From: Thermoplasmata archaeon
GTDB lineage: Archaea > Thermoplasmatota > Thermoplasmata > Halarchaeoplasmatales > Halarchaeoplasmataceae
Direction: 5' to 3'
Assembly: GCA_003553085.1 (NCBI GenBank)
Contig: PUPH01000031.1
Coordinates: 3-64,002 of the forward strand
DNA: 64,000 nucleotides
Shown piece by piece: positions 5,934 through 26,076 of the stretch. The notes under the pieces were generated by a model. The model was not told the DNA's origin. It worked only from the letters and a program-made list of their open reading frames with translations, and ran no database searches. The position numbers were made by a program, and so were the translations under genes. Within the stretch, counting starts at the first letter, position 1. Every line of letters starts with the position of its first letter.

Positions 5934-7201
5934 TCGGGAGCACCACCATAGCTCTCAAGGGTCAACTGAGAGGGCTTTTGGGGATCTAGTTCCTTCTCCG
6001 GTTTTTCTTCCAACTCTCCCTCTTCTTTGATGTTCTCTATCAGCGAGCGGGTCTGATGCCATATCCGATTTTCATAGTCTGTTGTCGTTTCTCCCTCCTT
6101 CTTTTCACTCTTCAATATCCTGAGGAGTCTTTCACCTAAGTCCCCCTGTGTACCCTCGGGAGTACCTTGTTCCTCGAATACCTTCTTTTCGATCACCTCT
6201 TCCCTTTCCTCATCGACCTTGACCTTTTCCACCCTTTCCGCTTCCAGTGAATTCTTGTTCAAGAAAACCGTTCTTTCACCATCACTCTCCAGTAGGTTGA
6301 TGATACTGGCAAAGTCTATATCTTGAGGTGAACCCTTGAACAGCTTTCCCTGGACCCTGACAAGCACTATATCGCCTTCCAAAACCGCTTCAGCTTTCTC
6401 GATCAACATCTCCTCGACTTCAGAAGCGGTAAACCCTTCCGCATCGACAAGGACTTTTACCATGGAGCAAACATCTACAGGAACGTACTCCGGCCGCCAA
6501 TCCTCCACCATGTAAAATCCACGTTTTTCTTCTCTCTCAAGATCGGTGTAAGAGGAACCGAAAGTTGTCCCGGAGAATATGACCGGTTTTCCATCTTTTA
6601 AATCTTCCAATGGACGGTGTATATGCCCTCCTGCATAGTAGTCATAACCATCGGGCAAGGACGAGATAGGCACCACGTTCTTGTCGGGTATATCGACAGG
6701 TTTCATCTCTGCGATGGGAGAATGGAAAACGAATATACTATCTCCGTCTGGAGTATCAAATTCTATCTGCTCGTAATATCCCTTCTCTAGTCGGTTTTTC
6801 CTCCCGCTCAAACCTGTTATACTGACTCCGGTCTTATCCTTGACGGTGGTGAGTCTATTTTCCGATTCTAGATAATTGACTACGTTCTTGAAGAGCTCCG
6901 CACTCTCCAGAACATCTATCAAGGACGCTCGAGCCAGATTGTAATCGTGGGAGCCGTAAACAGCATATGTACGTATGCCTGCATTCTTGACCTTCATCAG
7001 CAGTTTTACGGTGCGGTTCACTATGTCCATATCGGGTAATGGATTATGGAAAAGATCACCAGCGATTATGATGAAATCTACCTGCCGTTCTATACATTTT
7101 TCTATGGCATCCTCGAACGCCTTTATATTGTATTCTCTCAGCTCTGGCTTACGTCCGAAGGCTCCAAGATGACAATCAGCGATATGGGCGAATCTCACCA
7201 T
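5930..7201 (-). CDS. mre11: DNA double-strand break repair nuclease Mre11
   Basis: Calcineurin-like phosphoesterase motifs: ADCHLG, GDLFH, GSHD, GGHIHR. There is a 4-nt overlap with the rad50 start. Confidence 0.9.
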   Translation of the reverse strand: MVRFAHIADCHLGAFGRKPELREYNIKAFEDAIEKCIERQVDFIIIAGDLFHNPLPDMDIVNRTVKLLMKVKNAGIRTYAVYGSHDYNLARASLIDVLESAELFKNVVNYLESENRLTTVKDKTGVSITGLSGRKNRLEKGYYEQIEFDTPDGDSIFVFHSPIAEMKPVDIPDKNVVPISSLPDGYDYYAGGHIHRPLEDLKDGKPVIFSGTTFGSSYTDLEREEKRGFYMVEDWRPEYVPVDVCSMVKVLVDAEGFTASEVEEMLIEKAEAVLEGDIVLVRVQGKLFKGSPQDIDFASIINLLESDGERTVFLNKNSLEAERVEKVKVDEEREEVIEKKVFEEQGTPEGTQGDLGERLLRILKSEKKEGETTTDYENRIWHQTRSLIENIKEEGELEEKPEKELDPQKPSQLTLESYGGAPE

Positions 7202-8261: not shown

Positions 8262-8290
8262 CTTAAAAAAGAGAAAGAAAAGTGGTTTTT
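8262..8290 (-). terminator. Oligo-T tract immediately after the M14-A stop codon (archaeal-type terminator)
   Basis: The minus strand reads ...ACTTTTCTTTCTCTTTTTT directly after the stop. Confidence 0.5.
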
Positions 8291-10012
8291 TTAGTAATCG
8301 ACTGTCCATTCAACGTTTTCATCAGCATCGTTGTAGAGCCAATAACCGCTTCCAGGGGAGAACTCGAACCCTTGTGAATCCACGTAGGCAACGTTGTACT
8401 CCTCAGTAGCTTCGAAGTATCCCACTGTCGTCACTTCAGTCGGCAGATCATGGTGCCCTGCACTATCGCTGGGCAGCCCCACCATGTTCCAGCCTGGTTC
8501 TAGTGTAAGAGTAGTGGTTCCTGGTTCAATACCTTCCACCGTTAACGTATCCTCCACGTTCATCTGGACCCAGACGCCCATGGTGTGGTCCCATGTACCG
8601 AGGTTGTTGAAGTGATCCGCTCTGTCAGGTACATAAGAATACCAACTTCCTGAATCGAAGTACATAACTTTATCGTAATTACCGGCTATTCCATTATCAG
8701 GGTCCTCGAGGATCGCTTCCAACGACGTATCATCAGGTATCAGATTGAACGATACGAAGTTCCAGCCGTCGGCATCTGCGGTCAACTGTATGTCCATGGT
8801 AGTGGTTTCTGTACCGGGCTCCTGAACGGCGTTTTCATTATCTTCTTCCAAGCCGTTAGTACCAACAGCCCTAACGACGTACCACCAAAATATGTCGTCC
8901 GACATACCTTTATCATGATCAAGGTGTTCATAATCAGCTGAACCATCGGCAGTTACGCTTTCTACAAACGTACTTTCGTCCCACGGACCTGACTGCGATT
9001 CAGAGCGATATATATTGTAATGGCTGACATCTCCGGTCAGCTCATCAGGGCTGGCGTCCCACGAGATCAGGTTGTGATCATCACCCTCAGAGGGGATGCC
9101 TTCTGCGGTAACAAGGACGTTATCTATACGCCAGCCAGCTCCGAAGTCCTCATCATACTCCTCTATACCGGCTTCCCAGCGTAGATGTATCGTATCTCCA
9201 GCATGGGCTGATAGGTCAAAGGTCACTGTTTCCCAGTCCACTGAACTACCCCAGGCCGGTTCACCACCTAGTGGATTGCCAAAGCCGTCGTTTATCTCTC
9301 CGTCGTAGCCCTCGTTAGGGGTTATAAGATCGAAATTCCCGTTCACACCATTGGTCGATAGTTTCAGATTTCCGCCGTCGACCATTGTCGTGACGAAGCC
9401 GAGATCGCGCCAGTGGTCGAACGATAGTTCCACTTCCGTGGCCTCTGCAGGTATCTCTATAGCCGGTGAAGTCAGCATACTTATGTAACCCGCTCCTGAA
9501 GATTTGTGATACTGACCATCTCCGAAGTCCCATGAATTGGAGCCGACCGATGAGCCGTGCTGTCGGATATCCCATTCACTTCCACTGGCACTTCCGGAAA
9601 CGTCCGTTGTGTAACCTTTGTCCGCCGATACGTCGTCCTGGAACAGTATAGCTGTATCTCCACCGGTGTGCTGTACTTCCAAGTTATCAGGAGGTGCCGG
9701 CGGTGTGCCGACTATGGTAAATGTGCTGGCACTTTCGTCGTCTCCCCGTCTACCGGCGGTATCCACTGCTTCCACCCGTACCAAACAGTCGCTGCTGTGC
9801 TCGTTGGGCACCGTCCATGTGTACGAGCCCGTGTCAGCCACGTTGGTATCTATGGTCTGCCAGTTACTACCGGCATCTACACTGTACTCCAGATTGATGT
9901 GATCGACTGGGTTGTCACCAGGTGTCGTACTCCAAGATATCGTTTCTTGTGTACCCGCATCGAATGTCTCTCCTCCACTGGGCTGTGTGACCGATATCTC
10001 CGGAGGCTCTCC
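8291..10012 (-). repeat. Shared C-terminal cassette, copy 1 (modules A-B-C-D)
   Basis: Begins at GEPPEISVTQPSGGE and ends ...GYWLYNDADENVEWTVDY. Long identical nucleotide runs with the copies at 11571-13262 and 18408-20123. Confidence 0.8.
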
Positions 10013-11434
10013 GGCTATGATCTCTATATCTATCCTCTGCCCCCATTCATCGCTTATGGAGAAATCCTCAGAATAGGTTTCTGTATATATCCTAAAGTCA
10101 TCATCGAGCTCATAACCCTCTTCCACAAGATTTCCAAAGTTCAGTTCATAATAGCCATTTCTATCTGTATCGATGGATATGGTTTCACCGGTTTCCATAT
10201 TCTCGATGCTGACTGTAACTCCTTCTGCGTGACCACCGCCATCATATCCTACCGTCCCATATACTAAATACGGTACCGGTGGATAAAGCGTTACATCGCC
10301 ATCTCCGAGATCAGTATCTGCCACCCTGCACTGGTAGATCAAAGAGTCATCGACATCTTGGTTTATCGTCATTATTTCATCGGGATGAGGATAGAATCCT
10401 TCCATACCCCATCCACCTGTATAGATTTCATAAACCAACCCATGAGCACCTAGTGCGTCGTAAGCCCAGTCTGCAGCCCCTCCGGGTGCACTGTAACCTA
10501 TCAATTCATGCGGCTGACCATAGACGTACTGGGAACTATCATCTCCAAGACGGGAAGTTTGCGAAGTCATATGACCTGCCATGCCTCTAAACCAATCGTC
10601 ATGAGGTGACGGAGAGCTTGTGTGCATATAAGGTATCAATAGAGAATGATGGTGACTGTGGATGTTTTGATATGATTGAATATCATTAGAGAGCATGAAA
10701 TCTCTCAAATATTTATTCTCATACTCGGAGAAGGGTGCTTCACCACGATAAGTGTCCGAACTCGGATCGGAAACTCCCTGCTCCCATGCTATATCCCAGT
10801 TCCTGTTAAGATCCACACCGATAGATGTTGTAGGGGTCGAGTCGTTAGTGTTCTTTCTCCACCCTGATCGTTCCTCGTAAACGCCGTCTCCATCATATAT
10901 GTAGCCATCTGGATTCTGAATCGGCATTACGAAGATCCTTCTATTGTTCAGTAACCAGTATATGGTTTCATTGGTTTCGTACTCATTGAGCATCCTCCAG
11001 GTTAGATAAGAAGCTACCTGGGGTCCCGACCATTCTCGAGAGTGCATTATCGCATCGATCAAGATCTCTGGTTTATCATCTACTTGAACGTCCTCATCGG
11101 ATGTGATCTCAAGGACCCAAAGGTCTCTACCTTCATAACTGTTCCCGATATGTATCTTTGATACAAGTTCTGGAAATTCTATCACGAGATCATCGTACCA
11201 ATCGTATAATTCTTGAACACTGGGGTAGTGATCCGGGAACGGATACTCAGATCTCTCGGCGATACTTTCATCCCTAGTATCTTCATTTAAGATATCACAA
11301 GATCTAGACTCATCTATGCACAGGTTCGTATAGATCGAATCGTCTCCACTCTGCACGACACTTACCGAAAAGATCGACAATACTAAAAAAACCGTTATCA
11401 TTAGAACGCCTAGCTTAGTTTTCTCCTCGAACAT
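8291..11434 (-). CDS. Secreted M14 zinc carboxypeptidase (paralog A). Domain order: signal peptide, M14 domain, carboxypeptidase-regulatory-like domain, shared 570-aa C-terminal cassette.
   Basis: N-terminal hydrophobic signal. M14 motifs IMHSREWS (HxxE) and NPDGY. GGAG Shine-Dalgarno 9 nt before the ATG. C-terminal cassette shared with the three downstream genes. Confidence 0.85.
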   Translation of the reverse strand: MFEEKTKLGVLMITVFLVLSIFSVSVVQSGDDSIYTNLCIDESRSCDILNEDTRDESIAERSEYPFPDHYPSVQELYDWYDDLVIEFPELVSKIHIGNSYEGRDLWVLEITSDEDVQVDDKPEILIDAIMHSREWSGPQVASYLTWRMLNEYETNETIYWLLNNRRIFVMPIQNPDGYIYDGDGVYEERSGWRKNTNDSTPTTSIGVDLNRNWDIAWEQGVSDPSSDTYRGEAPFSEYENKYLRDFMLSNDIQSYQNIHSHHHSLLIPYMHTSSPSPHDDWFRGMAGHMTSQTSRLGDDSSQYVYGQPHELIGYSAPGGAADWAYDALGAHGLVYEIYTGGWGMEGFYPHPDEIMTINQDVDDSLIYQCRVADTDLGDGDVTLYPPVPYLVYGTVGYDGGGHAEGVTVSIENMETGETISIDTDRNGYYELNFGNLVEEGYELDDDFRIYTETYSEDFSISDEWGQRIDIEIIAGEPPEISVTQPSGGETFDAGTQETISWSTTPGDNPVDHINLEYSVDAGSNWQTIDTNVADTGSYTWTVPNEHSSDCLVRVEAVDTAGRRGDDESASTFTIVGTPPAPPDNLEVQHTGGDTAILFQDDVSADKGYTTDVSGSASGSEWDIRQHGSSVGSNSWDFGDGQYHKSSGAGYISMLTSPAIEIPAEATEVELSFDHWRDLGFVTTMVDGGNLKLSTNGVNGNFDLITPNEGYDGEINDGFGNPLGGEPAWGSSVDWETVTFDLSAHAGDTIHLRWEAGIEEYDEDFGAGWRIDNVLVTAEGIPSEGDDHNLISWDASPDELTGDVSHYNIYRSESQSGPWDESTFVESVTADGSADYEHLDHDKGMSDDIFWWYVVRAVGTNGLEEDNENAVQEPGTETTTMDIQLTADADGWNFVSFNLIPDDTSLEAILEDPDNGIAGNYDKVMYFDSGSWYSYVPDRADHFNNLGTWDHTMGVWVQMNVEDTLTVEGIEPGTTTLTLEPGWNMVGLPSDSAGHHDLPTEVTTVGYFEATEEYNVAYVDSQGFEFSPGSGYWLYNDADENVEWTVDY

Positions 11435-11537
11435 TTTTTTATCTCCTATGAACCGACGATTAACTTAGCTAGAATTTACCGGGTTAATAAACGTTGGTTG
11501 CAAATTTACATACCTTCTTCCTAAAACCAACTATATT

Positions 11538-11570
11538 CAAAAAAAAAATAAAAAAAGAAAGAAGGGTTTT
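11538..11570 (-). terminator. Long oligo-T tract after the S8 peptidase stop codon
   Basis: The minus strand reads AAAACCCTTCTTTCTTTTTTTATTTTTTTTTTG. Confidence 0.55.
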
Positions 11571-13262
11571 TTAGTACTCAACGGTCCAATCTACTGTGTG
11601 ATCCCCGTCGTTGTACAGCCAGTAGCCTTCTCCAGGTGAGAACTCGTATCCGGCTGCATCCACGTAAGCGATGTTGTATGCTTGCGCAGGATCGAAGTGA
11701 CCGACCGTAGTTACTTCCGCCGGGAGATCGTGGTTCCCGGCTGTAGAGCTAGGTAGTCCCACCATGTTCCATCCTGGATCCAGAGTTATGGTCGTCGTAC
11801 CTGGTTCGTTACCTTCAACCGTTAGCGTATCGTCCACGTTCATACGTATCCAAACACCCATGGTGTGGTCCCATGTACCAAGATTATTGAAGTGGTCCGC
11901 TCTATCAGGCACATACGAGTACCAACTCCCAGAATCGAAGTACATCAGGCTGTCGTAGTTACCAGCGATGCCGTAGTCTTCGTGTTCAAGTATGGATTCC
12001 AGATCTGTGATACCAGGTTCTAGGTTGAAAGATACAAAGTTCCAACCGTCGCCGTCCCCGGACAATTGGATGTCCATTGTCGGTAGGGCATCTCCTCCAG
12101 GTTCCTGTACCGAATCGGTGTTCTCTTCTTCCATGCCATTGGTACCAACAGCTCTAACGACATACCACCAGAATATTTCATCAGCCATACCTTTATCCTG
12201 ATCCAAGTAGTCATAAGTGGCTGAACCGTCGGCGGTTAGACTGTCTATCAGAGTGGTTTCGTCCCAAGGACCGTTCTGGTCTTCGGAACGATAGATATTG
12301 TATCCACTGACTTCATCGGGGTCATCAGGACTGGCGTCCCATGTGATCAGGTTGTGCTCGTCTCCGTCGGAAGGTACTCCCTCGGCTGTGACGGATATAT
12401 CATCGATACGCCATCCGGCACCTCCATCAGTGGTCCAGTCTTCAGCTCCTGCATCCCAACGTATCTGTATCGTCTCTCCGATGTTATCCGTCAGGTCGAC
12501 TGTGACCTCTTCCCAGCCTACCGTGCCGCCCCAGGCATCTTCGCCCTCTATGGGGTTGCTGTATCCTGTGCCGATGGTATGGTCGTACCCCGGTTCCGGG
12601 TCTTCGATCAGATCCCAAGTTTCTCCATCGGTTGATATCTTAAGGTTAACTCCATCCCAAGTATCTGCGATATCTCTCCAGTGCTGGAAGGTGAGTTCTA
12701 TGCTGTCTGCACTCTCCGGTATCATGATCTCTGGAGATATCAGCCAGGCGCCTCCACCTACCTTATCGTACTGTCCATCACCCCAGTCCCAGGAGTGATC
12801 TCCTATCACAGATCCATGATCTCTGATATCCCATCCGACTAGACCGCCGCTTGTTCCGCTAATATATCCAAGGTCCTCGGATACATCGTCAGCGAAGAGG
12901 ACTCCGTCTCCTAAGCCTTCGTGCTCCACGACTAAGTTGGAAGGCGGTTCGGGAGGTGTACCTTCTATGGTGAACACGCCGCTTATGTCTTCACCGGATC
13001 TACCTGAAGTATCCCTCACATTAGCTCTGATCAGAGATTCTGTGCTCTGCTCGTTCGGTACAGTCCATGTGTAACTGCTGGTGTCCGGTAGACCAGACTC
13101 GATCAGGTTCCAAGAGTCTCCGTTGTCAACACTGTAATAAAGATCAACATGATCGACCGGATCGTCGCCTTCCTGGGTATTCCAAAGGATATCTTCCTGT
13201 GTATCAGCGGTGAGCACTTCTCCGCCACTGGGTTGAGATATCGTTATCTCCGGAGGTTCTCC
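11571..13262 (-). repeat. Shared C-terminal cassette, copy 2
   Basis: Begins PGEPPEITISQPSGGE and ends ...GYWLYNDGDHTVDWTVEY. Confidence 0.8.
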
Positions 13263-15476
13263 GGGGACTTCATCGACCGCGTTATACATGACCAAGGCAT
13301 AATCCTGCCCGGTTCCCACGACAGGATCCGGGACATCGTACCCGTGTATTCGGACGGTGTAAAAACCTTCCTCTAGGTCTGTATCGCGTATGAAGACGTT
13401 CTCAACATTATTCACATCGTCCCATCCATCTCCGTTTGAATCAAAGGAACCGTATGTGGATTCCCCGGGTTCGGACCAGCTTTCTACTAGATTGTTACCT
13501 CTATAAACGTCACCAGTGGGTGAAATAACTTCCAGATTCAAGTCGTTCTTCAACGTCGGGTCATCTCCATCCATAGCTTGTGAATCGGACCACACCAAGG
13601 TTATCCTTAAAGGCTCTCCATCGTCCTGGTACTCTATCATATATTCATCAACATCTCCGGTTGATAGGACGGAAGTTTCATCTACGAACACTGAATCTAC
13701 GGGTGGATCGACAATCTGTGGTAAGTTAACCATACCCCAGCCTTCATCCTGATTGGGTATATGAGGACTGTTTTCACCACCGTTGTTGTTTGCCAGATTG
13801 TATGCCGTATTTACCATCAAGGCCTTTACCATGGATGGATTAGGCAGGCTTCCGTAGTGGGTATCATACCAATCAACGATAACGGTTCCTGCTCCGGCTG
13901 CAGCGGGACAAGCCATAGACGTTCCCGACATAGAACCGTATCCTCCACCAGGCATGGTAGATTCCACGTTATCACCAGGTGCTACAACATCAGGCTTTAC
14001 ACGATTATCATTGGTCCATCCACGAGAACTAAAACCAGCCATGTTATCAGGATTACCTCCACGTGATCCATAGTTCTCAGTTGCACCGATGGATATGATG
14101 TTTTTACCGTTAGCCGGACTGCCGATAGTATTAGATCCACTCCCAGAATTACCGGCCGCCACAAATATGACCATCGGTTCTCCGTCACCAGCGTCTCTAG
14201 TTAGCATGTCGAATTCTTCGTCTCCTAAGGTGTATTCTCCTGCGGTTTCCGCACCCCATGAATTTGAGTGAACGTATGCACCGCTGCGGTCCCTGGCTTC
14301 GGTGATTATCCTAACATATGAATCCGTTGGACCGATCCAACTTCCTCCGCCATCGAATATCCTAAGTGCGAACAGGTCGGTTTCAGGGGCAGACCCCTGT
14401 CCAGAATAGTAATCCTCATAGACCGTTGATCCGGTCCCATGATATGTATCGCCGCCCACCGAGCCGGTACAGTGTGTTCCGTGACCGTGACCGTCGTTCC
14501 ATGAACCTTCAGCGTCTGTCTCGTCACCAAAATCATAACCTCCTAGTACTCTACCAGTGAAGTCTTGGTGACCTGCATTCGGAGTAGTCCCATCGCCTAA
14601 CCCAGTATCAGCCACAGCAGTGACTACTCCAGCCCCTTTATATCCTATCTGGTTGGCAAAGGAACCATAATCTCCGTGCTCTCGGTAAGCTGTATCTGGA
14701 TCATCGTCATCATCGTAAACCCATAGACCGCCACCTATCGTCTGGGTAGCCATCTCATCCCATAGTTGGGGTTCTACATAGTTTGATATATAGTAAACAT
14801 CGTTTTTGTTCGCGAGCTCCACGAATTCAGATTCATCTTCAACGACGGTGAGTAATTTGTTTCCATCGGTGGTCCGGATCCTAACCATACCCGGCTCTAG
14901 GCCTTCAGCGAGTTTGAAACCAGGTTGGTATATTCCGATCCAATCAACGAACCATAGATCCTCAACACGATCAGCAAGTTCGGGTGTCATAACTACCTCA
15001 AAAGCGAAGTTTGGTTGATAGTTTATTATCTTAACACCCATCTCCTCCAGCTCAGCTCTCCATGAAGAAGATACCGGTCCGAGCACATGTATGAGGTATA
15101 TTCCCTCTTCACCAGGGCTGTAGCCGTCGATGGTTAATTCCGTATCGAATCGAGGTAAACCCTCGTTTATATCGAATACGTGTCCCTTGATACTGAGTTC
15201 CGTCCTTCCGATCAACGGATTCATTTCCATACCCTGATTTTGTAACGTATTGGCTGTTTCAAGATCCATATCTACAAGAGCGTAATCTCTGTATCTATAC
15301 AAGATCTGGGCATTCGATCGTTTCAGTCTGCTTATTTCTTCGATACTTTGTATATCCACCATAAAGTACTCCGTACTATCAGATCCTACAGAGTTGAACC
15401 CCGTAACAACGAAAACTGACAACAGCAGTACTACTGCGGTGAACACACACAGCATCTTTAGAACTGTCTTTTTCAT
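11571..15476 (-). CDS. Secreted S8 subtilisin-like serine peptidase. Domain order: signal peptide, S8 domain, P-domain-like region, shared C-terminal cassette.
   Basis: Catalytic triad context DTGLGDG, HGTHCTG, GTSMACP and oxyanion AAGNSG. SD GGTGGAG 6 nt before ATG 15476. The ORF-track start 15488 is a GTG. Confidence 0.85.
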   Translation of the reverse strand: MKKTVLKMLCVFTAVVLLLSVFVVTGFNSVGSDSTEYFMVDIQSIEEISRLKRSNAQILYRYRDYALVDMDLETANTLQNQGMEMNPLIGRTELSIKGHVFDINEGLPRFDTELTIDGYSPGEEGIYLIHVLGPVSSSWRAELEEMGVKIINYQPNFAFEVVMTPELADRVEDLWFVDWIGIYQPGFKLAEGLEPGMVRIRTTDGNKLLTVVEDESEFVELANKNDVYYISNYVEPQLWDEMATQTIGGGLWVYDDDDDPDTAYREHGDYGSFANQIGYKGAGVVTAVADTGLGDGTTPNAGHQDFTGRVLGGYDFGDETDAEGSWNDGHGHGTHCTGSVGGDTYHGTGSTVYEDYYSGQGSAPETDLFALRIFDGGGSWIGPTDSYVRIITEARDRSGAYVHSNSWGAETAGEYTLGDEEFDMLTRDAGDGEPMVIFVAAGNSGSGSNTIGSPANGKNIISIGATENYGSRGGNPDNMAGFSSRGWTNDNRVKPDVVAPGDNVESTMPGGGYGSMSGTSMACPAAAGAGTVIVDWYDTHYGSLPNPSMVKALMVNTAYNLANNNGGENSPHIPNQDEGWGMVNLPQIVDPPVDSVFVDETSVLSTGDVDEYMIEYQDDGEPLRITLVWSDSQAMDGDDPTLKNDLNLEVISPTGDVYRGNNLVESWSEPGESTYGSFDSNGDGWDDVNNVENVFIRDTDLEEGFYTVRIHGYDVPDPVVGTGQDYALVMYNAVDEVPGEPPEITISQPSGGEVLTADTQEDILWNTQEGDDPVDHVDLYYSVDNGDSWNLIESGLPDTSSYTWTVPNEQSTESLIRANVRDTSGRSGEDISGVFTIEGTPPEPPSNLVVEHEGLGDGVLFADDVSEDLGYISGTSGGLVGWDIRDHGSVIGDHSWDWGDGQYDKVGGGAWLISPEIMIPESADSIELTFQHWRDIADTWDGVNLKISTDGETWDLIEDPEPGYDHTIGTGYSNPIEGEDAWGGTVGWEEVTVDLTDNIGETIQIRWDAGAEDWTTDGGAGWRIDDISVTAEGVPSDGDEHNLITWDASPDDPDEVSGYNIYRSEDQNGPWDETTLIDSLTADGSATYDYLDQDKGMADEIFWWYVVRAVGTNGMEEENTDSVQEPGGDALPTMDIQLSGDGDGWNFVSFNLEPGITDLESILEHEDYGIAGNYDSLMYFDSGSWYSYVPDRADHFNNLGTWDHTMGVWIRMNVDDTLTVEGNEPGTTTITLDPGWNMVGLPSSTAGNHDLPAEVTTVGHFDPAQAYNIAYVDAAGYEFSPGEGYWLYNDGDHTVDWTVEY

Positions 15477-15655
15477 GCTAGACTCCACCTGCTAAGTTTT
15501 CTCCTCAAAACAAAATTTTAAGGCTTTGTTTAATCATGCAATGTAGTTATACAATATAAAGATTTACATCAAGATGGCATATAGAACAAACTATTTATCC
15601 ATGAATCCACAATATATTAGAAACCGCGATTAAAAATAGAAAGGAAAAGATGGGT

Positions 15656-17377
15656 TCAGTAGTCGATAATCCATTCAACACTTTGGTCGGCGTCGTTGTA
15701 GAGCCAGTAGCCCTCTCCAGGTGAGAACTCAAAGTTCGACGGGTCATGATCGTAGGCCAAATTATATTCAACGAAATCATCAAAATATCCTATACAGCTG
15801 ACTTCTCCGGGTAGGTTATGATTTCCAGATGTTGAACTAGGCATACCGACCATGTTCCAACCCGGGTGTAATACAATATCAGTACTGCTCAGTAAATACC
15901 CTTCAATAGTCAATGTATCGTCTGAAGTCATACGTATCCAGATACCCATGGTGTGATCCCAGTCTTGGAGATTGTTGTAGTGCTCATCTCTACCAGGGAC
16001 GTATGAAAACCATTCATGGCTTTCAGCGTCGTAGTACATCACCTGATCATATCGTCCTTGTATCCCAGTATTTGGATCATTTAAAATTGCAGTGATGCTA
16101 GTATCACCATATAACGGAAATAAGTTATAAGATACAAAATTCCAACCGTCGGCATCGCCGTCTGCGTACAGAGGGATATCAAAGGCACCTATATAACCTG
16201 TTTCCTCACCAACATCGGTGTTCTGCTCTTCTAGTCCATTTACTCCAACAGCACGCACTACGTAACACCACCAAACATCATCGGCCGTACCTTTACCTAT
16301 GTCGATGTAACTGTAATCTGCTGAACCGTCAGCGGGTAAGCTGTCTATGAGAGTACTGTCATCCCATGGACCTGTGTGTTCATCCGAACGATAGATATTG
16401 TAATGGCTCACCTCATCTGGATCATCCGGGCTAGCATCCCAGGTCAATAAATTATGATCGTCTCCGTCACCGGAAACCTCTCCTGTAACTAAGATATCAT
16501 CTATCCTCCAGCCCGCATGTGTTGAACCATAATTGTCAACACCGGCGTCCCATCTGATCCAAACACTTTCACCTTCGTATCCGCTGAGATCAACGGTTAC
16601 CTCTTCCCAGTCTGTAGAATGTCCCCATGCTGGTTCTCCCTCAAGTGGATTATCCCATCCACCTTCTACCGTACCATCGTATGCAGGATTCGGATCAGTT
16701 ATGAGATCCCATGAGCCCTCTGGGCCGTCCGTCGATATCTTAAGGTTGCCGCCGTCCCATATTGAGCCATCATCTTCAAATTCCCTCCAGTGCATGAATG
16801 TCATCTCTATCTCAGTCGCATCTGTCAGATCGATCTCAGGTGTTATCAGCCAGCTGAGTCCGCCATTGCTGGGATCGTTATAGTTACCATCGCCGAAGTC
16901 CCATGAATAATCTCCGACTGCGGATCCGTGGGTACGGATACTCCACTCGCTGGCACCGTCAGTCTGTCCTGTGGTATATCCAAGGTCGCCGGATTCCACA
17001 TCATCCTCAAAGATGACTTGAGTAGCTTGTCCGATGTGGTCCACTATCAGATTAGAAGGTGCTGATGGGGGGATACCGTGGATGGCAAAAACGCCGCTGA
17101 TATCTTCGTTCCAGCGTCCCAAGGAATCTACAACACGGACTCGGATCTTACATTCCAAACTATCCTCGTTGGGAACACCCCAGGTATAACTTCCAGTATC
17201 TTGGATATCGCTATCGATGTTATACCATGAATCTCCGGTATCCGTGCTGTACCATATTTCTATACCGTCTATGGGATCTTCCCCTTTTTCAGTAGTCCAT
17301 GTGATGTCTTCTTCTTCGAAGGCATACCATTCTTCTCCACCTATGGGAGAAGTGACGGTTATGGATGGAGGATCCCC
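15656..17377 (-). repeat. Shared C-terminal cassette, copy 3 (most divergent)
   Basis: Begins GDPPSITVTSPIGGEE and ends ...GYWLYNDADQSVEWIIDY. Confidence 0.75.
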
Positions 17378-18376
17378 TTCTGCTACGGGTTGAGCTAGGT
17401 GTCCTAGGCTAGCGATAGCGTGCCTGGTCGTATGGGTTATCTGTGGAAGTGTGAGTTTGTCCAGCGTGTCATCTGCCGTGTGATAGTAGGGGCTAAAGAC
17501 GGTTTCTATGGACAGAGTGGCATTGTATCCCTCGTCCCAAAAGCTGGAATGGTCTGAACGCCATTCAGTGCTGTCGTACTCATAGGTGAAGTTGATTCCT
17601 ATGTTATCATAGGCCTCGCTTACATCCGCCTTGTAATCCAGCATCCAGTTGGAGGGCGTATTTGCGTGAAGTGTGATGGCCAAGTCAGGTTCCGCGTATC
17701 CAACCATATCGTAATTGAGTTTACCCAACAACTGTTCCTCCGTTTCATCGATGTTAGAAGCATAGTAACTGCTACCGTGCAGTCCCTGTTCCTCCGCACC
17801 CCATAGTGCAAAACGGATGGTACGTTCAAAACTGTATTGGGACATTATCCTCGCAGCCTCTATAGTCACTGCTGAACCACTGCCGTTATCGTCTGCACCA
17901 GGAGCCGCCCCGCCCCAATTGTTTATACTATCAAGGTGCCCGCCGATGATATATGTCTGAGGCTCTAGGTCTGGATTGGTTCCAGGATGTACCGCTATAA
18001 CATTCGTGCTGCTGTGCCCACCAGATGTGAAGTTCTGCATATAGGTATCTAAACCGAAGGAGCTAAGTTCTTGATATGCCCATAGAGCTGCATCATCGAA
18101 ACCACTGGTACCGGTTAATCTGGTCGGTACGCCGTTTTCATCCTCAAAACTTTGTAAAGTATCGATGTAATCATATATATTTGATTCTTCGACTTGATCT
18201 ATCATCATCTGTATCTGAGGATCATGTCCTGGAAACACAGGTGTATCGAGGATATACTCATCGCTTTCATGGTCTAAAATAGGTCCTCCAGAGGTCAAAG
18301 ATACTACCTGTGAGAAAACAGATAGCACTAACGATAAACCGACAAGAAGAACCAGTGATTTCATCTTTTTTTTCAT
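15656..18376 (-). CDS. Secreted M28 zinc aminopeptidase. Domain order: signal peptide, M28 domain, shared C-terminal cassette (divergent copy).
   Basis: M28 metal-ligand motifs GGHLDS, GADDNGSGS, EEQGLHGS and DMVG. Only 31 bp separate it from the upstream M14-B gene, with a GGAG SD in the gap. Confidence 0.8.
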   Translation of the reverse strand: MKKKMKSLVLLVGLSLVLSVFSQVVSLTSGGPILDHESDEYILDTPVFPGHDPQIQMMIDQVEESNIYDYIDTLQSFEDENGVPTRLTGTSGFDDAALWAYQELSSFGLDTYMQNFTSGGHSSTNVIAVHPGTNPDLEPQTYIIGGHLDSINNWGGAAPGADDNGSGSAVTIEAARIMSQYSFERTIRFALWGAEEQGLHGSSYYASNIDETEEQLLGKLNYDMVGYAEPDLAITLHANTPSNWMLDYKADVSEAYDNIGINFTYEYDSTEWRSDHSSFWDEGYNATLSIETVFSPYYHTADDTLDKLTLPQITHTTRHAIASLGHLAQPVAEGDPPSITVTSPIGGEEWYAFEEEDITWTTEKGEDPIDGIEIWYSTDTGDSWYNIDSDIQDTGSYTWGVPNEDSLECKIRVRVVDSLGRWNEDISGVFAIHGIPPSAPSNLIVDHIGQATQVIFEDDVESGDLGYTTGQTDGASEWSIRTHGSAVGDYSWDFGDGNYNDPSNGGLSWLITPEIDLTDATEIEMTFMHWREFEDDGSIWDGGNLKISTDGPEGSWDLITDPNPAYDGTVEGGWDNPLEGEPAWGHSTDWEEVTVDLSGYEGESVWIRWDAGVDNYGSTHAGWRIDDILVTGEVSGDGDDHNLLTWDASPDDPDEVSHYNIYRSDEHTGPWDDSTLIDSLPADGSADYSYIDIGKGTADDVWWCYVVRAVGVNGLEEQNTDVGEETGYIGAFDIPLYADGDADGWNFVSYNLFPLYGDTSITAILNDPNTGIQGRYDQVMYYDAESHEWFSYVPGRDEHYNNLQDWDHTMGIWIRMTSDDTLTIEGYLLSSTDIVLHPGWNMVGMPSSTSGNHNLPGEVSCIGYFDDFVEYNLAYDHDPSNFEFSPGEGYWLYNDADQSVEWIIDY

Positions 18377-18383
18377 TTTTGAT

Positions 18384-18387
18384 CTCC
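18384..18387 (-). promoter_or_regulatory. Shine-Dalgarno GGAG for the M28 gene, inside the 31-bp gap after M14-B
   Basis: The minus strand reads TAAATGAGCATGTATATATCCAAGGAGATCAAAAATG. Confidence 0.5.
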
Positions 18388-18407
18388 TTGGATATATACA
18401 TGCTCAT

Positions 18408-20123
18408 TTAATATTCGATCGTCCAATCTACATCATGATCCGCGTCGTTGTACACCCAATAACCGCTACCGGGCGAGAACTCGAATCCACTGGCATCGGT
18501 ATAAGCGACGTTATACTCCTCACTTGCATCGAAGTATCCCACTGTCGTTACTTCCGCCGGTAGGTTGTGGTTCCCGGCTGTAGAGCTAGGTAGTCCCACC
18601 ATGTTCCATCCAGGATCCAGAGTTATGGTCGTAGTACCGGGTTCGTTACCTTCGATCGTTAGCGTATCGTCCACGTTCATCTGGATCCAGACACCCATGG
18701 TGTTGTCCCACGTACCTAGGTTGTTGAAGTGATCCGCTCTATCCGGTACATAAGAATACCAACGTCCAGAATCGAAGTACATAACTTTATCGTAATTACC
18801 GGCTATACCGTTATCCGGGTCCTCAAGTATATCCACTAGATCGGTGCTGCCGAGCTCAAGATTGAAGGATACGAAGTTCCAGCCGTCGGCATCTGCGGTC
18901 AACTGTATATCCATGGTAGTGGTTTCTGCACCCGGTTCCTGCACCGCGTTTGTGTTATCTTCCTCAATACCATTGGTACCTACCGCTCTAACGACATACC
19001 ACCAGAATATTTCATCAGCCGTACCTCTTTCGGGGTCGATATACTCGTAACCTGTAGAACCGTCGGCGGTAACACTGTCTATCAGGGTACTTCCGTCCCA
19101 CGGTCCATCACTGGATTCAGCTCGATAGATATTATAGTGACTGACTTCGTCAGGATCATCTGGACTAGCATCCCAGGTGATCAGATTGTCTTCGTCTCCA
19201 TCCGAGATGATGCCTTCCGCCGTCACCAGGATATCGTCGATACGCCAGCCCTGGGCACCACCATCATAATCTTCGACTCCAGCGTCCCATCTAAGCCATA
19301 TTGAGTCTCCGGCATATTCACTCAGATCTACCGTTACCTGTTCCCACCCCTGAGAATCAACCCAGGCTGGCTCTCCTTCTATGGGATTTTCAAATCCGGT
19401 TCCAAGGGTTACATCATAAGATGGGTCGGGGTTTTCGATCAAAGACCATTCTCCGTTGGGATCCGCACTTTCCACGGATATCTTTAGATTTCCTCCGTCG
19501 TAATAGTTCGTCCATGAGTCATCGTAATCGAAGTCCCTCCAGTGCTGGAATGTCAACTCCACCTCCTCGGCTTCTTCGGGTATATCGATCTCGGGAGATA
19601 TCAACCAGCTGACTTCTCCTACTTTCTCATAGCCTCCATCGCCCCAATCCCAGGAACTGTCTCCGACTATGGATCCGTGGTCTCTGATATCCCATTCGTT
19701 CGTGCCTTCACTGCTGCCTGTGGTATATCCAAGGTCCTCCGATGCATCATCATGGAATAATACTTCTTGTCCTGAACCAACATGCTGTACATCTAGATTT
19801 TCCGGAGGGTCTGGAGGTGCGCCTTCGATGGTGAAGACATCACTGATGTCTTCTCCACTCCTACCTACCGTGTCTATTACGTTCAACCTGACACGACATT
19901 CCGTACTATCTTCATTGGGTACGGTCCATGTATAGCTTCCCGTATCTGCTACTCCGGATCCGATAGATGCCCAGCTATATCCATCATCTACACTGTACCA
20001 TAGATCTATAGAATCGATAGGATCGTCCCCCTGTTCGGTAGTCCAAGTGATATCTTCTTCAGTGCCCGCGGTGAAGGTCTCTCCTCCTTCAGGTCGGTTT
20101 ATGGTGATATCCGGGGGATCCCC
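18408..20123 (-). repeat. Shared C-terminal cassette, copy 4
   Basis: Begins GDPPDITINRPEGGE and ends ...GYWVYNDADHDVDWTIEY. Confidence 0.8.
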
Positions 20124-21656
20124 CACCTCTTCCAGAACGATATCTATCCTCTGGCCCCATTCTTCACCGATGGTAAAATCTTGATCATTATGATCGGCAG
20201 AAATACGGAAGGTGTCGTCGGTCGTGTATCCACTATCTACAAGATTTCCAAAGTTCAATTCGTAGTAGCCGTTACTGTTCGTCCCGATGGAGATCGTTTC
20301 TGATGTATCGACGTTCTCTACCGTTACTGGAACATCCACCACAGAACCTCCTGAAGAATATTCGACCGTACCGTAAACCAGGTAGGGGACCGGAGGATGG
20401 AGGTGGTTTGTACCGTCTCCGAGATCTATATCGGCTATCCTTCCTTGATATATCAGGGCGTCATCAACGTCTTTATTGATGGTCATTATCTCATCTGGTG
20501 GTGGATAAAATCCATGACCTCCGGTTTCAAGTTCGAAAACCATCGAGAAAGCTCCGGTTTCATCATAGACCCAATCTCCAGCACCACCAGGTGCTGAGTA
20601 ACCGATCTCTTCTCCCGCCTGACCATAGCTGTAGGGATCATTCTCATCCCCCATCTGAGAGGTCAGAGAAGTCATATGTCCTGCCATCCCTCGGTACCAA
20701 CTATCATGGGGCGATGGATCAGTAGAATTACACCAAGGGATCAACATGGTCCCGGCATAGCTGTGGATGTTCTGATACGTGTCGATATCGTTTTCAAGTA
20801 TGAAATCCCTGAGAGACTTAGTCTCATACTCAGAAAACGGTGCCTCGCCGTGATAATCGTCTGCACCACCTCTTGAATTGCCGTCTTCCCAATGTATATC
20901 CCAATTCCGATTAAGATCTACACCTACAGCATCATCAGGGATCGTATCGTTACGGTTTTTCCGCCAATTATTTTGGTTTCCGTAATCGCCGTCACTATCA
21001 TAGATATACCCATCAGGATTGACCATGGGCATAACGTAGATCCTACGATTGTTGAGCATCCAGTGGATGGTCTCGTTGGAGTCGTATTCGTCCAGTATCC
21101 GCCACATGAAGTAGGCTGAAGCCTGAGTGGATGACCATTCTCTTGCGTGCATCGATCCATCCACAAGGAAACCAGGTTTGTGATCCACCTGTGTATCTTC
21201 GTCAGAGGTCACCTCCAGGACCCATAGATCTCTGCCCTCCCAGGACTGGCCTATGTTGATCTTCGATACAAGATCGGGATACTCGTCGACCAGGTCATCG
21301 TACCAATCATTCAACTCACTCACACTGGGATAGTGGTTGGCAAAAGGATAGTCGGTTTCAAGGATCTTTTCTCTGTCCTCTTCCTGCCTAATAACCTCGA
21401 CCTCCATACCTGAAGATTCCAGATAAGACAAGGTTGAATCATCGGTTTCAACTAATAGATTCATACCATCTCGCACCAATATTTCAGTATTGGCTTCGTT
21501 TATACTCTGTAAGTCCGCTAGAGATCTCATCTGGACTCCAGCTTTGATCACCTCTACATCTTCATCTTCGTAGTGGTTTACAGCTACAAAACAGACAGAA
21601 AACATCAAAAGCAGAACTACCGTTATTACCCCGAGGGGGATCTTTGTATTGTGCAT
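18408..21656 (-). CDS. Secreted M14 zinc carboxypeptidase (paralog B). Domain order: signal peptide, M14 domain, carboxypeptidase-regulatory-like domain, shared C-terminal cassette.
   Basis: SMHAREWS and NPDGY motifs. Collinear with and similar to paralog A. GGAGG SD 6 nt before the ATG. Confidence 0.85.
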   Translation of the reverse strand: MHNTKIPLGVITVVLLLMFSVCFVAVNHYEDEDVEVIKAGVQMRSLADLQSINEANTEILVRDGMNLLVETDDSTLSYLESSGMEVEVIRQEEDREKILETDYPFANHYPSVSELNDWYDDLVDEYPDLVSKINIGQSWEGRDLWVLEVTSDEDTQVDHKPGFLVDGSMHAREWSSTQASAYFMWRILDEYDSNETIHWMLNNRRIYVMPMVNPDGYIYDSDGDYGNQNNWRKNRNDTIPDDAVGVDLNRNWDIHWEDGNSRGGADDYHGEAPFSEYETKSLRDFILENDIDTYQNIHSYAGTMLIPWCNSTDPSPHDSWYRGMAGHMTSLTSQMGDENDPYSYGQAGEEIGYSAPGGAGDWVYDETGAFSMVFELETGGHGFYPPPDEIMTINKDVDDALIYQGRIADIDLGDGTNHLHPPVPYLVYGTVEYSSGGSVVDVPVTVENVDTSETISIGTNSNGYYELNFGNLVDSGYTTDDTFRISADHNDQDFTIGEEWGQRIDIVLEEVGDPPDITINRPEGGETFTAGTEEDITWTTEQGDDPIDSIDLWYSVDDGYSWASIGSGVADTGSYTWTVPNEDSTECRVRLNVIDTVGRSGEDISDVFTIEGAPPDPPENLDVQHVGSGQEVLFHDDASEDLGYTTGSSEGTNEWDIRDHGSIVGDSSWDWGDGGYEKVGEVSWLISPEIDIPEEAEEVELTFQHWRDFDYDDSWTNYYDGGNLKISVESADPNGEWSLIENPDPSYDVTLGTGFENPIEGEPAWVDSQGWEQVTVDLSEYAGDSIWLRWDAGVEDYDGGAQGWRIDDILVTAEGIISDGDEDNLITWDASPDDPDEVSHYNIYRAESSDGPWDGSTLIDSVTADGSTGYEYIDPERGTADEIFWWYVVRAVGTNGIEEDNTNAVQEPGAETTTMDIQLTADADGWNFVSFNLELGSTDLVDILEDPDNGIAGNYDKVMYFDSGRWYSYVPDRADHFNNLGTWDNTMGVWIQMNVDDTLTIEGNEPGTTTITLDPGWNMVGLPSSTAGNHNLPAEVTTVGYFDASEEYNVAYTDASGFEFSPGSGYWVYNDADHDVDWTIEY

Positions 21657-21755
21657 TTTTTTCCTCCAATTTTACCAAGAATCTATGTATCGTTGAACAC
21701 ACAGGTCATAAATAAATCTTCTTAGCACATTTAGCTCGAAAAAGGCGGTGATAAC

Positions 21756-21765
21756 TTTCATATAT
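21756..21765 (+). promoter_or_regulatory. TATA-box-like element (ttcatatata) centred about 27 nt upstream of the cysS ATG, which suggests a leaderless transcript
   Basis: AT-rich octamer at the canonical archaeal TATA distance from the start codon. No SD motif in between. Confidence 0.4.
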
Positions 21766-21787
21766 AGCAATAAGAATACAACTTCGC

Positions 21788-23227
21788 ATGACCCTAAATC
21801 TGTATAACACCCTCAATGGTAAAAAAGAGCCTTTCGAACCCATCGGGAACGTAGTCAGGATCTATTCCTGTGGGCAGACGATCTACGAGGATATGCACGT
21901 AGGCAACGCAAAGACATACAGTGCCTGGGACATCCTGATTAGATACCTTAGATGGAAAGGCTACGAAGTATTTCATGTGATGAATATTACAGATGTGGGT
22001 CATCTGACCGACGATGCAGATCAGGGAGAAGACAAGATAGAAAAATCTGCTAGAGAGAAAAAACTTGAGCCTATGGAATTAGTGACCCGTCAGGTCATCA
22101 AATTTTATAACGAGATGGACAGGCTGAACATGTGTGGTGCGAACGTATACCCTCGAGCTACTGGACACATGGTAGAGATGATCGAGGCGGTCGAAGATAT
22201 CATGGAGAACGGTTATGCTTATGAAGTCAACGGCACGGTTTACTTCGATGTGCCGAAGTTCGCAGAGGACCATGGATACCCTATGTTGGGAGGCAGAACT
22301 ATCGAAGACCTTGAAGTCGGTGCCGGAGGCAGAGTTGGTGAAAGGGAGTTGAAGGAAAAAAGATCGCCTCTTGATTTTGCATTGTGGATAAACGCACCTC
22401 CTGAACATCTGATGAGATGGACCTCACCATGGGGAGAGGGATACCCGGGTTGGCACTTGGAATGCAGCGTCATGGGAAATAAATATCTGGGTGAGACATT
22501 CGACATCCACGCCGGCGGTGTGGACCATATATTCCCACATCACCCTAACGAGAGGGCACAGAACATCGCCATGAACGATCTTGATGAAGAACCTGTGAAG
22601 TATTGGCTGCACAGCGCTTTTATCACTGTTGATGGAGAGAAGATGTCCAAGAGCAAAGGCAACTACTACACCGTCGAAGATCTGTTGGAAGAGTACGACC
22701 CCATGGTTATAAGGACCTTCTTCGCAGGACTTCACTACCGGTCCCAAAGCGATTTCAGTGAGAAAGCACTCAAAGAAGCAGAAAAAAATCTAAAAACCAT
22801 GGAGAACGCTATCCGGCTTGCTAAGGAAAGTGAAGGGGGTTCCGGAGAGGAACTAAAAGAGAGTATTAAGGATGTTAAAAACGGATTTGAAGATGCCATG
22901 GACGAGGATCTGAACACCTCTCTGGCGTTGAGTAAGATCCTCAATTTTGCTAGAGCTATCAATCGCAACTTGGATGATAGACCTGAAATATTGCTTTTGG
23001 CAGTGGATACCTTGAAGGAGCTCGCGGGTGTACTCGGGATAAGGTTGGAAAGAAGCAAGACCATCATCCAAGGTGATGAATACATAGACTTACTGGTGGA
23101 CATCAGGGAGGAACTGAGAACGAAGAAGGAGTTCGATCTGGCGGACAAGATAAGGGACGAGTTAGCATCCAGAGGTATCGTAGTAGAAGATACAGCCGAT
23201 GGTACAAAATGGTATCAGACAGGGTAG
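21788..23227 (+). CDS. cysS: Cysteinyl-tRNA synthetase
   Basis: Class I HIGH-type motif HVGNAKTY, KMSKS motif KMSKSKGN and Zn-binding Cys. Confidence 0.9.
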   Translation: MTLNLYNTLNGKKEPFEPIGNVVRIYSCGQTIYEDMHVGNAKTYSAWDILIRYLRWKGYEVFHVMNITDVGHLTDDADQGEDKIEKSAREKKLEPMELVTRQVIKFYNEMDRLNMCGANVYPRATGHMVEMIEAVEDIMENGYAYEVNGTVYFDVPKFAEDHGYPMLGGRTIEDLEVGAGGRVGERELKEKRSPLDFALWINAPPEHLMRWTSPWGEGYPGWHLECSVMGNKYLGETFDIHAGGVDHIFPHHPNERAQNIAMNDLDEEPVKYWLHSAFITVDGEKMSKSKGNYYTVEDLLEEYDPMVIRTFFAGLHYRSQSDFSEKALKEAEKNLKTMENAIRLAKESEGGSGEELKESIKDVKNGFEDAMDEDLNTSLALSKILNFARAINRNLDDRPEILLLAVDTLKELAGVLGIRLERSKTIIQGDEYIDLLVDIREELRTKKEFDLADKIRDELASRGIVVEDTADGTKWYQTG

Positions 23228-23295
23228 AACGGTCTCCGAAAAGGTAAAATCATATCAGGCTTTATTCATCTTCAACTAAAACGAGATGTAGTTCG

Positions 23296-24993: not shown

Positions 24994-25493
24994 TGATCTA
25001 TCGTTTTGTCGAAATCCTTCATCTTATCTAAAACGGTTTCAGTCTCTGGTAAAAACTTTTTGTGTTTTAGGTGTTCGTCTATTTCGTTGAATGGTACGAA
25101 CTCACCTTCCTGAAACTCGTTTGGATTCAGCCGTACTTCCTCGGGAGGAACTGTAGTCTTAAAGAGTGAAACGTGTTCTATCTCTTCAGGCAGTTCCTTA
25201 ACGAAATTCCCTATGTGTACGTGTTCACCGACAGTACCTATCTCCTCCTCCATCTCTTTAAGCAACGTTTTTTCGTATGAATCACCGGAGGAGACATGGC
25301 CACCTAATACAACGCTCCAGTGACCCCCGAAAAACTCCTTATCATTACTCCGTTTGGTTATCAGTACACGTCCATCGTTACTGACAACGAAGAACATCAC
25401 AGTTCTATGTGGTAATTTTTTTTCATGAACTTCTTTACGTGTTGCCTTTCCAACGACTTCGTTCTTTTCGTTCACAACATCGATCAGTTCCAT
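24987..25493 (-). CDS. NUDIX hydrolase
   Basis: Nudix box GGHVSSGDSYEKTLLKEMEEEIG. Confidence 0.75.
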   Translation of the reverse strand: MELIDVVNEKNEVVGKATRKEVHEKKLPHRTVMFFVVSNDGRVLITKRSNDKEFFGGHWSVVLGGHVSSGDSYEKTLLKEMEEEIGTVGEHVHIGNFVKELPEEIEHVSLFKTTVPPEEVRLNPNEFQEGEFVPFNEIDEHLKHKKFLPETETVLDKMKDFDKTIDHQ

Positions 25494-25611
25494 GGAGTAC
25501 TTGATAAGGTTTTCATATAAAAAGTATGTCTTTGATAAGTCTAGTGTGCACGGATATGAGTCAAAAATGACGAATTATCAGAGTAAAGTTTTAAATAATT
25601 TAAACCTTTAT

Positions 25612-26037: not shown

Positions 26038-26076
26038 AGGATGGGATAGAATATTATCGGTTTATAATCCTTATGT

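Follow-up and report, generated by a model that had tools for sequence, protein, structure and literature searches.

Probable short-tract gene conversion in the FN3-like and terminal domains of an older C-terminal module shared by secreted peptidases of a halophilic Thermoplasmata archaeon

We analysed a stretch of 64,000 nucleotides (nt), here called the window, from a Thermoplasmata archaeon (GenBank assembly GCA_003553085.1, contig PUPH01000031.1, positions 3 to 64,002 of the forward strand). It contains a tandem array of four consecutive minus-strand open reading frames (ORFs), g1 to g4, which are secreted-peptidase genes with a common C-terminal cassette of about 575 amino acids (aa; 1.7 kb). 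The cassettes share 54-68% pairwise aa identity. We found that nucleotide identity exceeds what the proteins and the codon usage predict in the 3' part of g1, g2 and g4, where it falls into short blocks that switch partner. The most likely explanation is short-tract non-allelic gene conversion in the FN3-like domain and the terminal domain (domain D) of g1, g2 and g4, acting on an older shared module. The initial annotation, made from the sequence alone, had proposed recent cassette exchange, gene conversion or concerted evolution of the entire 1.7 kb rather than ancient domain sharing. Of this proposal, conversion or concerted evolution stands for the FN3-like domain and D of these three genes; it fails for the two upstream domains (A and B) and for g3. 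The opposition to ancient sharing was a false dichotomy, and both processes apply. The four genes are:

8291-11434, minus strand: g1, secreted M14 zinc carboxypeptidase, 1047 aa (Pfam Peptidase_M14, E=1.4e-66; cassette from about residue 470)
11571-15488, minus strand: g2, secreted S8 subtilase, 1305 aa (Pfam Peptidase_S8, E=2.6e-38; cassette from about residue 738)
15656-18376, minus strand: g3, secreted M28 aminopeptidase, 906 aa (Pfam Peptidase_M28, E=8.6e-37; cassette from about residue 329)
18408-21656, minus strand: g4, secreted M14 zinc carboxypeptidase, 1082 aa (Pfam Peptidase_M14, E=2.8e-73; cassette from about residue 507)

Protein and genome searches assign the window to a Candidatus Saliniplasma-like halophilic Thermoplasmata archaeon. 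The Candidatus Saliniplasma / Haloplasmatales group comprises extreme halophiles within Thermoplasmata that are so far represented only by metagenome-assembled genomes (MAGs) from soda and saline lakes (PMC11332174). By combining an AlphaFold model with weak family matches we divide the cassette into four predicted domains. These are, in order, an Ig-like domain (A), a MAM-like jelly roll (B), an FN3-like domain (C) and a terminal domain of about 180 aa without annotation (D). The AlphaFold2 model of the g4 cassette is all-beta with a mean predicted local distance difference test score (pLDDT) of 90.5. Besides the four copies no further cassette was found in the window. The domains lie as follows:

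9113-10009, minus strand: g1 domains A (9719-10009) and B (9113-9715), non-converted
8294-9109, minus strand: g1 domains C (8843-9109) and D (8294-8839)
12393-13259, minus strand: g2 domains A (12972-13259) and B (12393-12968), non-converted, observed identity close to expected
11574-12389, minus strand: g2 domains C (12126-12389) and D (11574-12122)
16490-17374, minus strand: g3 domains A (17087-17374) and B (16490-17083), non-converted
15659-16486, minus strand: g3 domains C (16226-16486) and D (15659-16222)
19227-20120, minus strand: g4 domains A (19833-20120) and B (19227-19829), non-converted
18411-19223, minus strand: g4 domains C (18960-19223) and D (18411-18956), mosaic recipient or partner of g1 and g2

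Expected nucleotide identity was derived, for each segment and each pair, from the aa alignment and the codon usage of the genes themselves. Over the whole cassette the copies are 59-70% identical at the nucleotide level and 36-47% identical at third positions. Across A and B (the first ~310 codons) the observed identity of 0.54-0.64 equals the expected one, with z at or below 2.0 in 11 of the 12 segment-pair comparisons; the lone exception is g3-g4 in domain B (z=3.3). The number of synonymous substitutions per synonymous site (dS) could be calculated by NG86 for two of the 12 pairs in A and B, giving 3.8 and 1.8, and not for the other 10. The synonymous sites of this part of the cassette are saturated. 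In contrast to A and B, domain D exceeds expectation for g1-g4 (z=6.3; 0.795 against 0.717), g2-g4 (z=5.6) and g1-g2 (z=3.4), even though dS is above 1 over D as a whole. No pair that includes g3 showed excess identity in C or D. The excess is restricted to the last ~270 codons of g1, g2 and g4, that is the last ~0.8 kb and mainly the last 0.55 kb. Long identical runs had been attributed to the entire 3' 1.7 kb, and identity no higher than expected from codon constraint had been named as the observation that would speak against recombination. We found identity at that level in A and B, about two thirds of the cassette, apart from g3-g4 in B; the runs hold for the FN3-like and D portion of g1, g2 and g4 only, where D lies above it.

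The longest exact runs are 41 nt between g1 and g4 (8751-8791 / 18868-18908) and 45 nt between g2 and g4 (11730-11774 / 18567-18611). In a codon-resampling null of 500 simulations the longest exact run averaged ~17 nt and reached 32 nt at most, and both observed runs lie above all simulations. A 23-nt run shared by g1 and g2 falls inside this null (P=0.056). Three identical strings had been quoted as examples of recombination, and each was recovered in two copies at positions differing by a few to ~30 nt from those first given: a 33-mer (8759/18876), a 38-mer (8652/18769) and a 23-mer (8577/11857). As evidence of excess identity the g1/g4 and g2/g4 runs hold up, and the 23-nt g1/g2 string does not.

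A GENECONV-type check, proposed along with the initial annotation, was run as a home-made permutation on polymorphic sites. It was significant for g1-g4 (P=0.0002) and for g2-g4 (P=0.001). Four tracts were delimited:

8742-8811 / 18859-18928, minus strand: g1/g4 tract, 70 nt, 97% identity, holding the 41-nt exact run
8553-8689 / 18670-18806, minus strand: g1/g4 tract, 137 nt, 93% identity
12151-12186 / 18985-19020, minus strand: g2/g4 tract, 36 nt, 100% identity
11730-11843 / 18567-18680, minus strand: g2/g4 tract, 114 nt, 96% identity, holding the 45-nt exact run

When the sites of the g1/g2/g4 triplet are followed through the last ~200 codons, they fall into blocks in which g4 agrees with g1, then with g2, then again with g1. 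One 90-nt bin contains 0 sites for g1=g4 and 20 for g2=g4. Clustering of the closest pair at third positions is significant in C and D (z=6.3, P<=1e-4), as opposed to the 310 codons of A and B (z=-1.0, P=0.86). Since identity at synonymous sites that is specific to one pair and switches partner cannot stem from constraint on the protein or on a shared RNA, we take this pattern as the signature of recombination. The g3 gene is a divergent copy without conversion tracts. Counts of quartet-informative sites over all four genes were uninformative with g3 as outgroup throughout, and the triplet analysis was used instead.

We considered that the cassette might have been fused to each head long ago and that its nucleotide similarity arises from purifying selection and codon bias, with no recombination. 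This account fits A and B, where observed and expected identity agree and dS is saturated, it fits all pairs with g3 in C and D, and it accommodates the 23-nt g1/g2 run. It does not explain the excess in D or the 41- and 45-nt runs, and third-position partner switching cannot come from constraint at the protein level. Ancient sharing without recombination is refuted for the FN3-like domain and D, and as an explanation of the locus as a whole we consider it unlikely.

The window is a metagenome assembly. We weighed gene conversion against errors of assembly. Two independent public assemblies of the locus, L001 (GCA_003553355.1) and L002 (GCA_019594275.1), were found via the M28 protein. L001 is 99.93% identical to window positions 9448-28376, with 12 substitutions and one 1-nt indel in 18.9 kb. 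L002 is 97.5% identical to 14102-27346, and from 14102 to 20250 it has 2 differences. The cassettes of g2, g3 and g4, and that of g1 upstream of 9448, are present in L001; in L002 only those of g3 and g4 are, plus part of the g2 head. Within the limits of their contigs, both have the gene order of the window: cysteinyl-tRNA synthetase (CysRS), M14, M28, S8, M14. The covered cassettes are near-identical to those of the window, and inside the conversion tracts there are 0 differences. This agreement indicates that the mosaic of g2 to g4 is real and older than the split of the sampled strains. Positions 8291-9447 of g1, including its tracts (8553-8811), lie outside both assemblies.

It is very unlikely that the mosaic or the array was made by mis-joined paralog or strain reads in a short-read metagenome assembly. 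Consistent with such an artefact, the source is of the MAG type and the L001 contig (PWEC01000085.1) breaks off at window position 9448, within the g1 cassette. Contig ends also interrupt the cassette in at least 11 of 76 related loci, and another MAG contig (L079) has a split S8 gene whose middle is unlike that of L024. However, L001 and L002 come from other samples or studies and reproduce the g4, g3 and g2 cassettes between them, and the copies differ too much to be duplicated contigs. The exact repeats, at 45 nt or less, are below read length and below the large assembler k-mers (k141 and k191 in contig names). A duplication artefact, which the initial annotation had named as a possible refutation, was not what we found, and its warning of ~7 kb of near-repeat sequence hazardous to assembly was overstated for paralogs that differ this much. 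Nor did we accept the cassettes interrupted by contig ends (at least 11 of 76 loci) as demonstrating such a hazard, since with contigs of 3-20 kb this number does not clearly exceed what chance would give.

Further comparison of L002 with the window revealed a patch of ~760 nt at 20415-21174, in the M14 catalytic domain of g4, with ~150 differences (82% identity) and a 3-codon insertion. After it there are no further differences until about 21750. Conversion from the paralog g1 was rejected as its source, since the patch is only 65% identical to g1. It seems to have been imported from a more distant strain by homologous recombination.

We then compared the relatives of the individual domains. 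For A and B of g1 the nearest relative is a C25 peptidase from a different Saliniplasma MAG (L003, 74-79% aa identity), as against 54-58% to the paralogs in the window. B of g2, g3 and g4 also has its closest relatives in other genomes, and A of g2 and g4 are about as close to each other (66%) as to genes in other genomes. The D domains of g1, g2 and g4 are closest to each other (74-82%). These relationships bear on the first proposal in its full form, in which the entire 1.7 kb, terminator included, would recently have been exchanged or duplicated. The identical domain order in the four genes and a similar T-rich motif after three of the stops would agree with it. Nevertheless, the identities over the cassette are low, synonymous sites are saturated in two thirds of it, the nearest relatives of A of g1 and of B in all four genes sit on other heads in other genomes, and the terminator-like motif also follows an unrelated gene (29072-31618). 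We regard recent whole-cassette exchange as refuted.

There is scarcely more to be said for a nucleotide-level constraint, in which synonymous sites would be preserved by a conserved RNA structure, by an antisense gene or by a regulatory element located at the mRNA 3' end: synonymous conservation is indeed concentrated at the 3' end and there are long antisense ORFs (9557-10267 and 12298-12798, both plus strand), but a shared element would fix the same sites in all copies whereas we see pair-specific, partner-switching identity that g3 lacks, no Rfam match was found, and the antisense ORFs lie in A and B, upstream of the tracts. These two ORFs, of 236 aa and 166 aa respectively, are situated inside the g1 and g2 cassettes opposite A and B. 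The one in g2 extends ~90 nt into C, and neither coincides with the conversion tracts. They are probably chance ORFs within coding sequence for acidic proteins.

Several points weigh against gene conversion as we read it. The tracts are short and, apart from the 36-nt one, 93-97% rather than 100% identical; for the same reason they are not very recent. Four sequences cannot fix the direction or the number of the conversion events. The g1-g2 excess is only modest, and the longest exact run of this pair is not significant. Across the family, same-genome nearest-neighbour clustering is 41% for the MAM-like domain and 40% for D, and D is thus not uniquely prone to homogenisation. Chimeric joins in paralogous regions are possible in a metagenome assembly, and the 8291-9447 portion of g1 is present in no other assembly. 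Finally, a common docking partner as the cause of D homogenisation would be a functional rationale only.

With these points in mind, gene conversion on an older module probably proceeded as follows. The four-domain module is old and family-wide, with hundreds of copies in related genomes on many hydrolase heads. In this array its 5' two thirds show divergence to synonymous saturation, and the FN3-like domain and D of g1, g2 and g4 were probably overwritten several times by short non-allelic tracts of ~35-140 nt, presumably seeded in the most conserved stretches. The outcome is a g4 that is a patchwork of g1-like and g2-like segments, and a g2 tail that resembles S8 genes on other contigs. The conversion events are older than the split of the sampled strains. 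Over deeper time, the histories of the heads and of the cassette parts disagree: the type of MAM-like domain and D group by genome and the heads by orthology. Homogenisation of D may have been favoured if all exo-enzymes need one common partner at the cell surface or in export.

The deeper time scale was examined in another genus-level MAG (L038), which has an orthologous M14-M28-(M14) array with heads 66-69% identical to those of g4 and g3. Between its two D domains identity is 74%, compared with 54-59% to the D domains of the window. Overall, D is 54-62% identical across genomes, as against 75-82% among g1, g2 and g4 in the window and 74% between the M14 and M28 copies of L038. Both L038 genes carry a domain of another type at the MAM position (22-30% identity across genomes). 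The Ig-like domain of L038 still follows the M14 head (64% identity to g4), and same-genome grouping fails for this domain. On the long time scale the cassette is a shuffled, partly homogenised module; on the short scale, conversion is seen only in the FN3-like domain and D of three genes of the array.

The 3' end of g2 has relatives of its own among S8 genes of other assemblies (L024, L079 and L080), whose heads are only 28-51% identical to that of g2:

11574-11753, minus strand: g2 tail, approximately the last 60 codons, 82-95% nucleotide identity (peak ~92-95%) to the S8 gene tails of L024, L079 and L080

The L080 gene was tried as a clean g2 ortholog with which to polarise the conversions and was rejected. 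Its head is 51% identical to g2 and its FN3-like domain and tail are 83-95% identical at the nucleotide level, and so it is a mosaic itself. L024 (PWGE01000106.1) and L079 (JAFDUC010000103.1) contain the same S8 gene, with head and flank 97% identical over 4.8 kb. The middle domains of their cassettes are non-homologous, and their D domains are 98-100% identical. The L079 copy is broken into two ORFs, of 834 aa and 483 aa. The difference could be either a real swap of the cassette middle or a pseudogene, or else an assembly chimera. L024 was placed in the bin of a Sumerlaeota bacterium, probably wrongly.

The array resembles non-allelic (ectopic) gene conversion and concerted evolution among paralogous genes for surface or secreted proteins in its short tracts of high synonymous identity, its partner-switching mosaics, and a similarity that is greater between paralogs of one genome than between orthologs of different genomes in part of the gene only. 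It differs from the usual case in that it occurs in uncultured halophilic Thermoplasmata, is restricted to C-terminal targeting-like domains on different heads, and involves tracts old enough to have 3-7% differences, with no sign of a programmed variation system. Conversion between ectopic paralogs belongs to textbook knowledge, and the understanding of such loci is unchanged by this example. What it adds is that modular exo-enzyme genes in an uncultured order of extremely halophilic archaea evolve by shuffling and homogenising a shared C-terminal module. This affects ortholog calling, phylogenies, and the assembly or binning of MAGs for these genomes.

We next turned to the wider distribution of the module. 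The cassette was found in 380 confirmed stretches of GTDB species representatives, where its heads include M28, C25 and papain C1 peptidases, peptidyl-arginine deiminase, PET-hydrolase/dienelactone hydrolase-like proteins, Glug and others. With the threshold at E<=1e-3 a profile of D only matched 4296 cluster representatives, and with E<=1e-10 it matched 1369; the match nearly always ends at the last residue of the protein. Domain D is an undescribed all-beta C-terminal domain. It had no match in Pfam (at E 0.1 or better), in NCBIfam or among PDB sequences, and Foldseek of D against the PDB returned no fold at E<=0.001. With the cassette profile, M28 heads were the only matches among PDB sequences. 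Literature searches found the lineage and no description of this C-terminal module. A conserved strand of the form W-x-[VI]-x-[YF] closes the D proteins (g1-g4 and P0002-P0012), with WTVDY, WTVEY, WIIDY and WTVEF among its variants, and the last residue is almost always aromatic.

Domains A and B gave weak matches to known families. Against the Kre9_KNH-like Ig domain (PF10342, threshold 24.6 bits) domain A scored 27.7 in g4, 24.2 in g1 and 18.7 in g2, with no match in g3. Domain B stayed below curated cut-offs, at 17.8 against 26.9 for InhA-like_MAM (g3, E=0.0025) and 27.0 against 30 bits for choice_anch_J. A Foldseek search with the model of the whole cassette matched the InhA2 structures 4yu5 and 4yu6. 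Domain B is thereby likened to the MAM-like domain of immune inhibitor A peptidases and to choice-of-anchor J domains (PF20773, NF038128) by its weak matches and by the resemblance to the InhA2 fold. It differs from them in that its scores all fall under the cut-off and in that it is fixed within a four-domain module.

As what seems to be the invariant last domain of dozens of different exo-enzymes per genome, and one that seems to tend towards genome-specificity, D probably mediates a common step, either surface tethering or export. If selection keeps D fitted to a single partner, it would promote the fixation of conversion tracts. A more specific proposal, which we offer tentatively and hold to be possible rather than likely, is that D is a lineage-expanded docking or sorting domain of halophilic Thermoplasmata, with thousands of members that nearly always form the final ~180 residues of large secreted proteins. 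It would tether or export the exo-enzyme repertoire via one partner, and conversion would keep the match within each genome, with the logic of a dockerin or of the C-terminal domain (CTD) of the type IX secretion system (T9SS) in a new fold. Like the dockerins of cellulosomal enzymes and the T9SS CTDs (Por_Secre_tail, PF18962), D is one C-terminal module on many secreted hydrolases of an organism. A module that is more uniform within than between genomes is what is expected if its cargo meets one partner. Compared with these systems, D has no sequence or fold relation, is ~180 aa long rather than roughly 70-90 aa, and has a partner that is hypothetical. D does not belong to the known sorting or anchoring modules (T9SS CTD, dockerin, PGF-CTERM-type), as judged by the lack of a Pfam or NCBIfam match and of a C-terminal hydrophobic helix. 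As a concrete candidate for a surface-anchoring or export signal on diverse secreted hydrolases of this lineage, D is the most interesting and useful by-product of this analysis.

By their family-model scores the heads of g1 and g4, g2, and g3 are assigned as clear members of Peptidase_M14, Peptidase_S8 and Peptidase_M28, respectively. The bit scores far exceed the Pfam gathering cut-offs, with 225.5 (g1) and 247.5 (g4) against 21.6 for M14, 132.4 against 21.8 for S8 and 127.2 against 21.3 for M28. At the N-terminus all four proteins have a hydrophobic signal-like segment, as read from the sequence. The initial annotation had described the four catalytic portions as unrelated. This does not apply to g1 and g4, which are full-length paralogs with 60% aa identity over 1095 aligned positions. 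Their heads alone are also 60% identical in aa; at the nucleotide level they share 62% where 60% is expected, and no exact run is longer than 19 nt. In the PDB, the M28 head is related to bacterial leucyl aminopeptidases. The heads clearly fall in the families of extracellular M14, S8 and M28 peptidases that carry C-terminal Ig or FN3 extensions. Unlike in those enzymes, all four here share one 575-aa tail that ends in an undescribed domain.

Downstream of the stop codons of g1, g2 and g3 we observed an A-run followed by CC(C), a TCTTTTCYTTTCT-like stretch and a T-run in this order, all of low complexity. The g4 gene is without a post-stop T-rich motif. The intervals concerned are:

8265-8290, minus strand: T-rich terminator-like motif 3' of the g1 stop, coding strand AAAAACCACTTTTCTTTCTCTTTTTT
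11539-11570, minus strand: T-rich terminator-like motif 3' of the g2 stop
15632-15655, minus strand: T-rich terminator-like motif 3' of the g3 stop
18377-18407, minus strand: g4-g3 spacer, 31 nt, with GGAGAT 6 nt 5' of the g3 ATG and no T-run

This motif had been presented as a terminator shared by g1 and g2 together with the cassette. That view was not borne out, as g1 has GAAAGAAAAGTGGTTTTTTTAG, which is no exact fit to the pattern quoted, and the motif also occurs after g3. A similar ACCC...TTTTCTTT...T-run is found 3' of the unrelated gene 29072-31618, and the motif is not cassette-specific. It is best read as a generic oligo-T terminator-like signal, and it is no proof that a terminator was copied along with the cassette. 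Because the 31-nt spacer has a GGAGAT and no T-run, g4 and g3 are probably co-transcribed.

The unrelated gene, 29072-31618 (minus strand), encodes a probable surface protein of 848 aa with CARDB, NPCBM_assoc and DUF11 repeats. The interval 29040-29071 lies between it and the convergent gene 27540-29039 (plus strand) and contains a shared terminator-like sequence, ACCCCTTTTCTTTATTTTTT on the minus strand, which is similar to the motif 3' of g1, g2 and g3.

Scans of the window for tRNA genes and Rfam families gave no match. On one side the protease array is flanked by genes for a Rad50-like protein (3522-5933) and a Mre11-like phosphoesterase (5930-7201). On its other side, ~19 kb from the Rad50/Mre11 pair, are NurA (26487-27524) and HerA/DUF87 (27540-29039). 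Between the two pairs lie the protease array, CysRS and a beta-propeller gene. The latter (23296-24993, plus strand) adjoins the array and encodes a PQQ/BamB-like beta-propeller protein of 565 aa with a weak FN3 match. A tblastn search with the FN3 domain of the cassette gave a marginal match inside this gene, at 24493-24573 (E about 1e-3). Elsewhere in the window two very large proteins with TPR repeats are encoded at 551-2698 (715 aa) and 36236-40414 (1392 aa), with up to 17 TPR_1 stretches.

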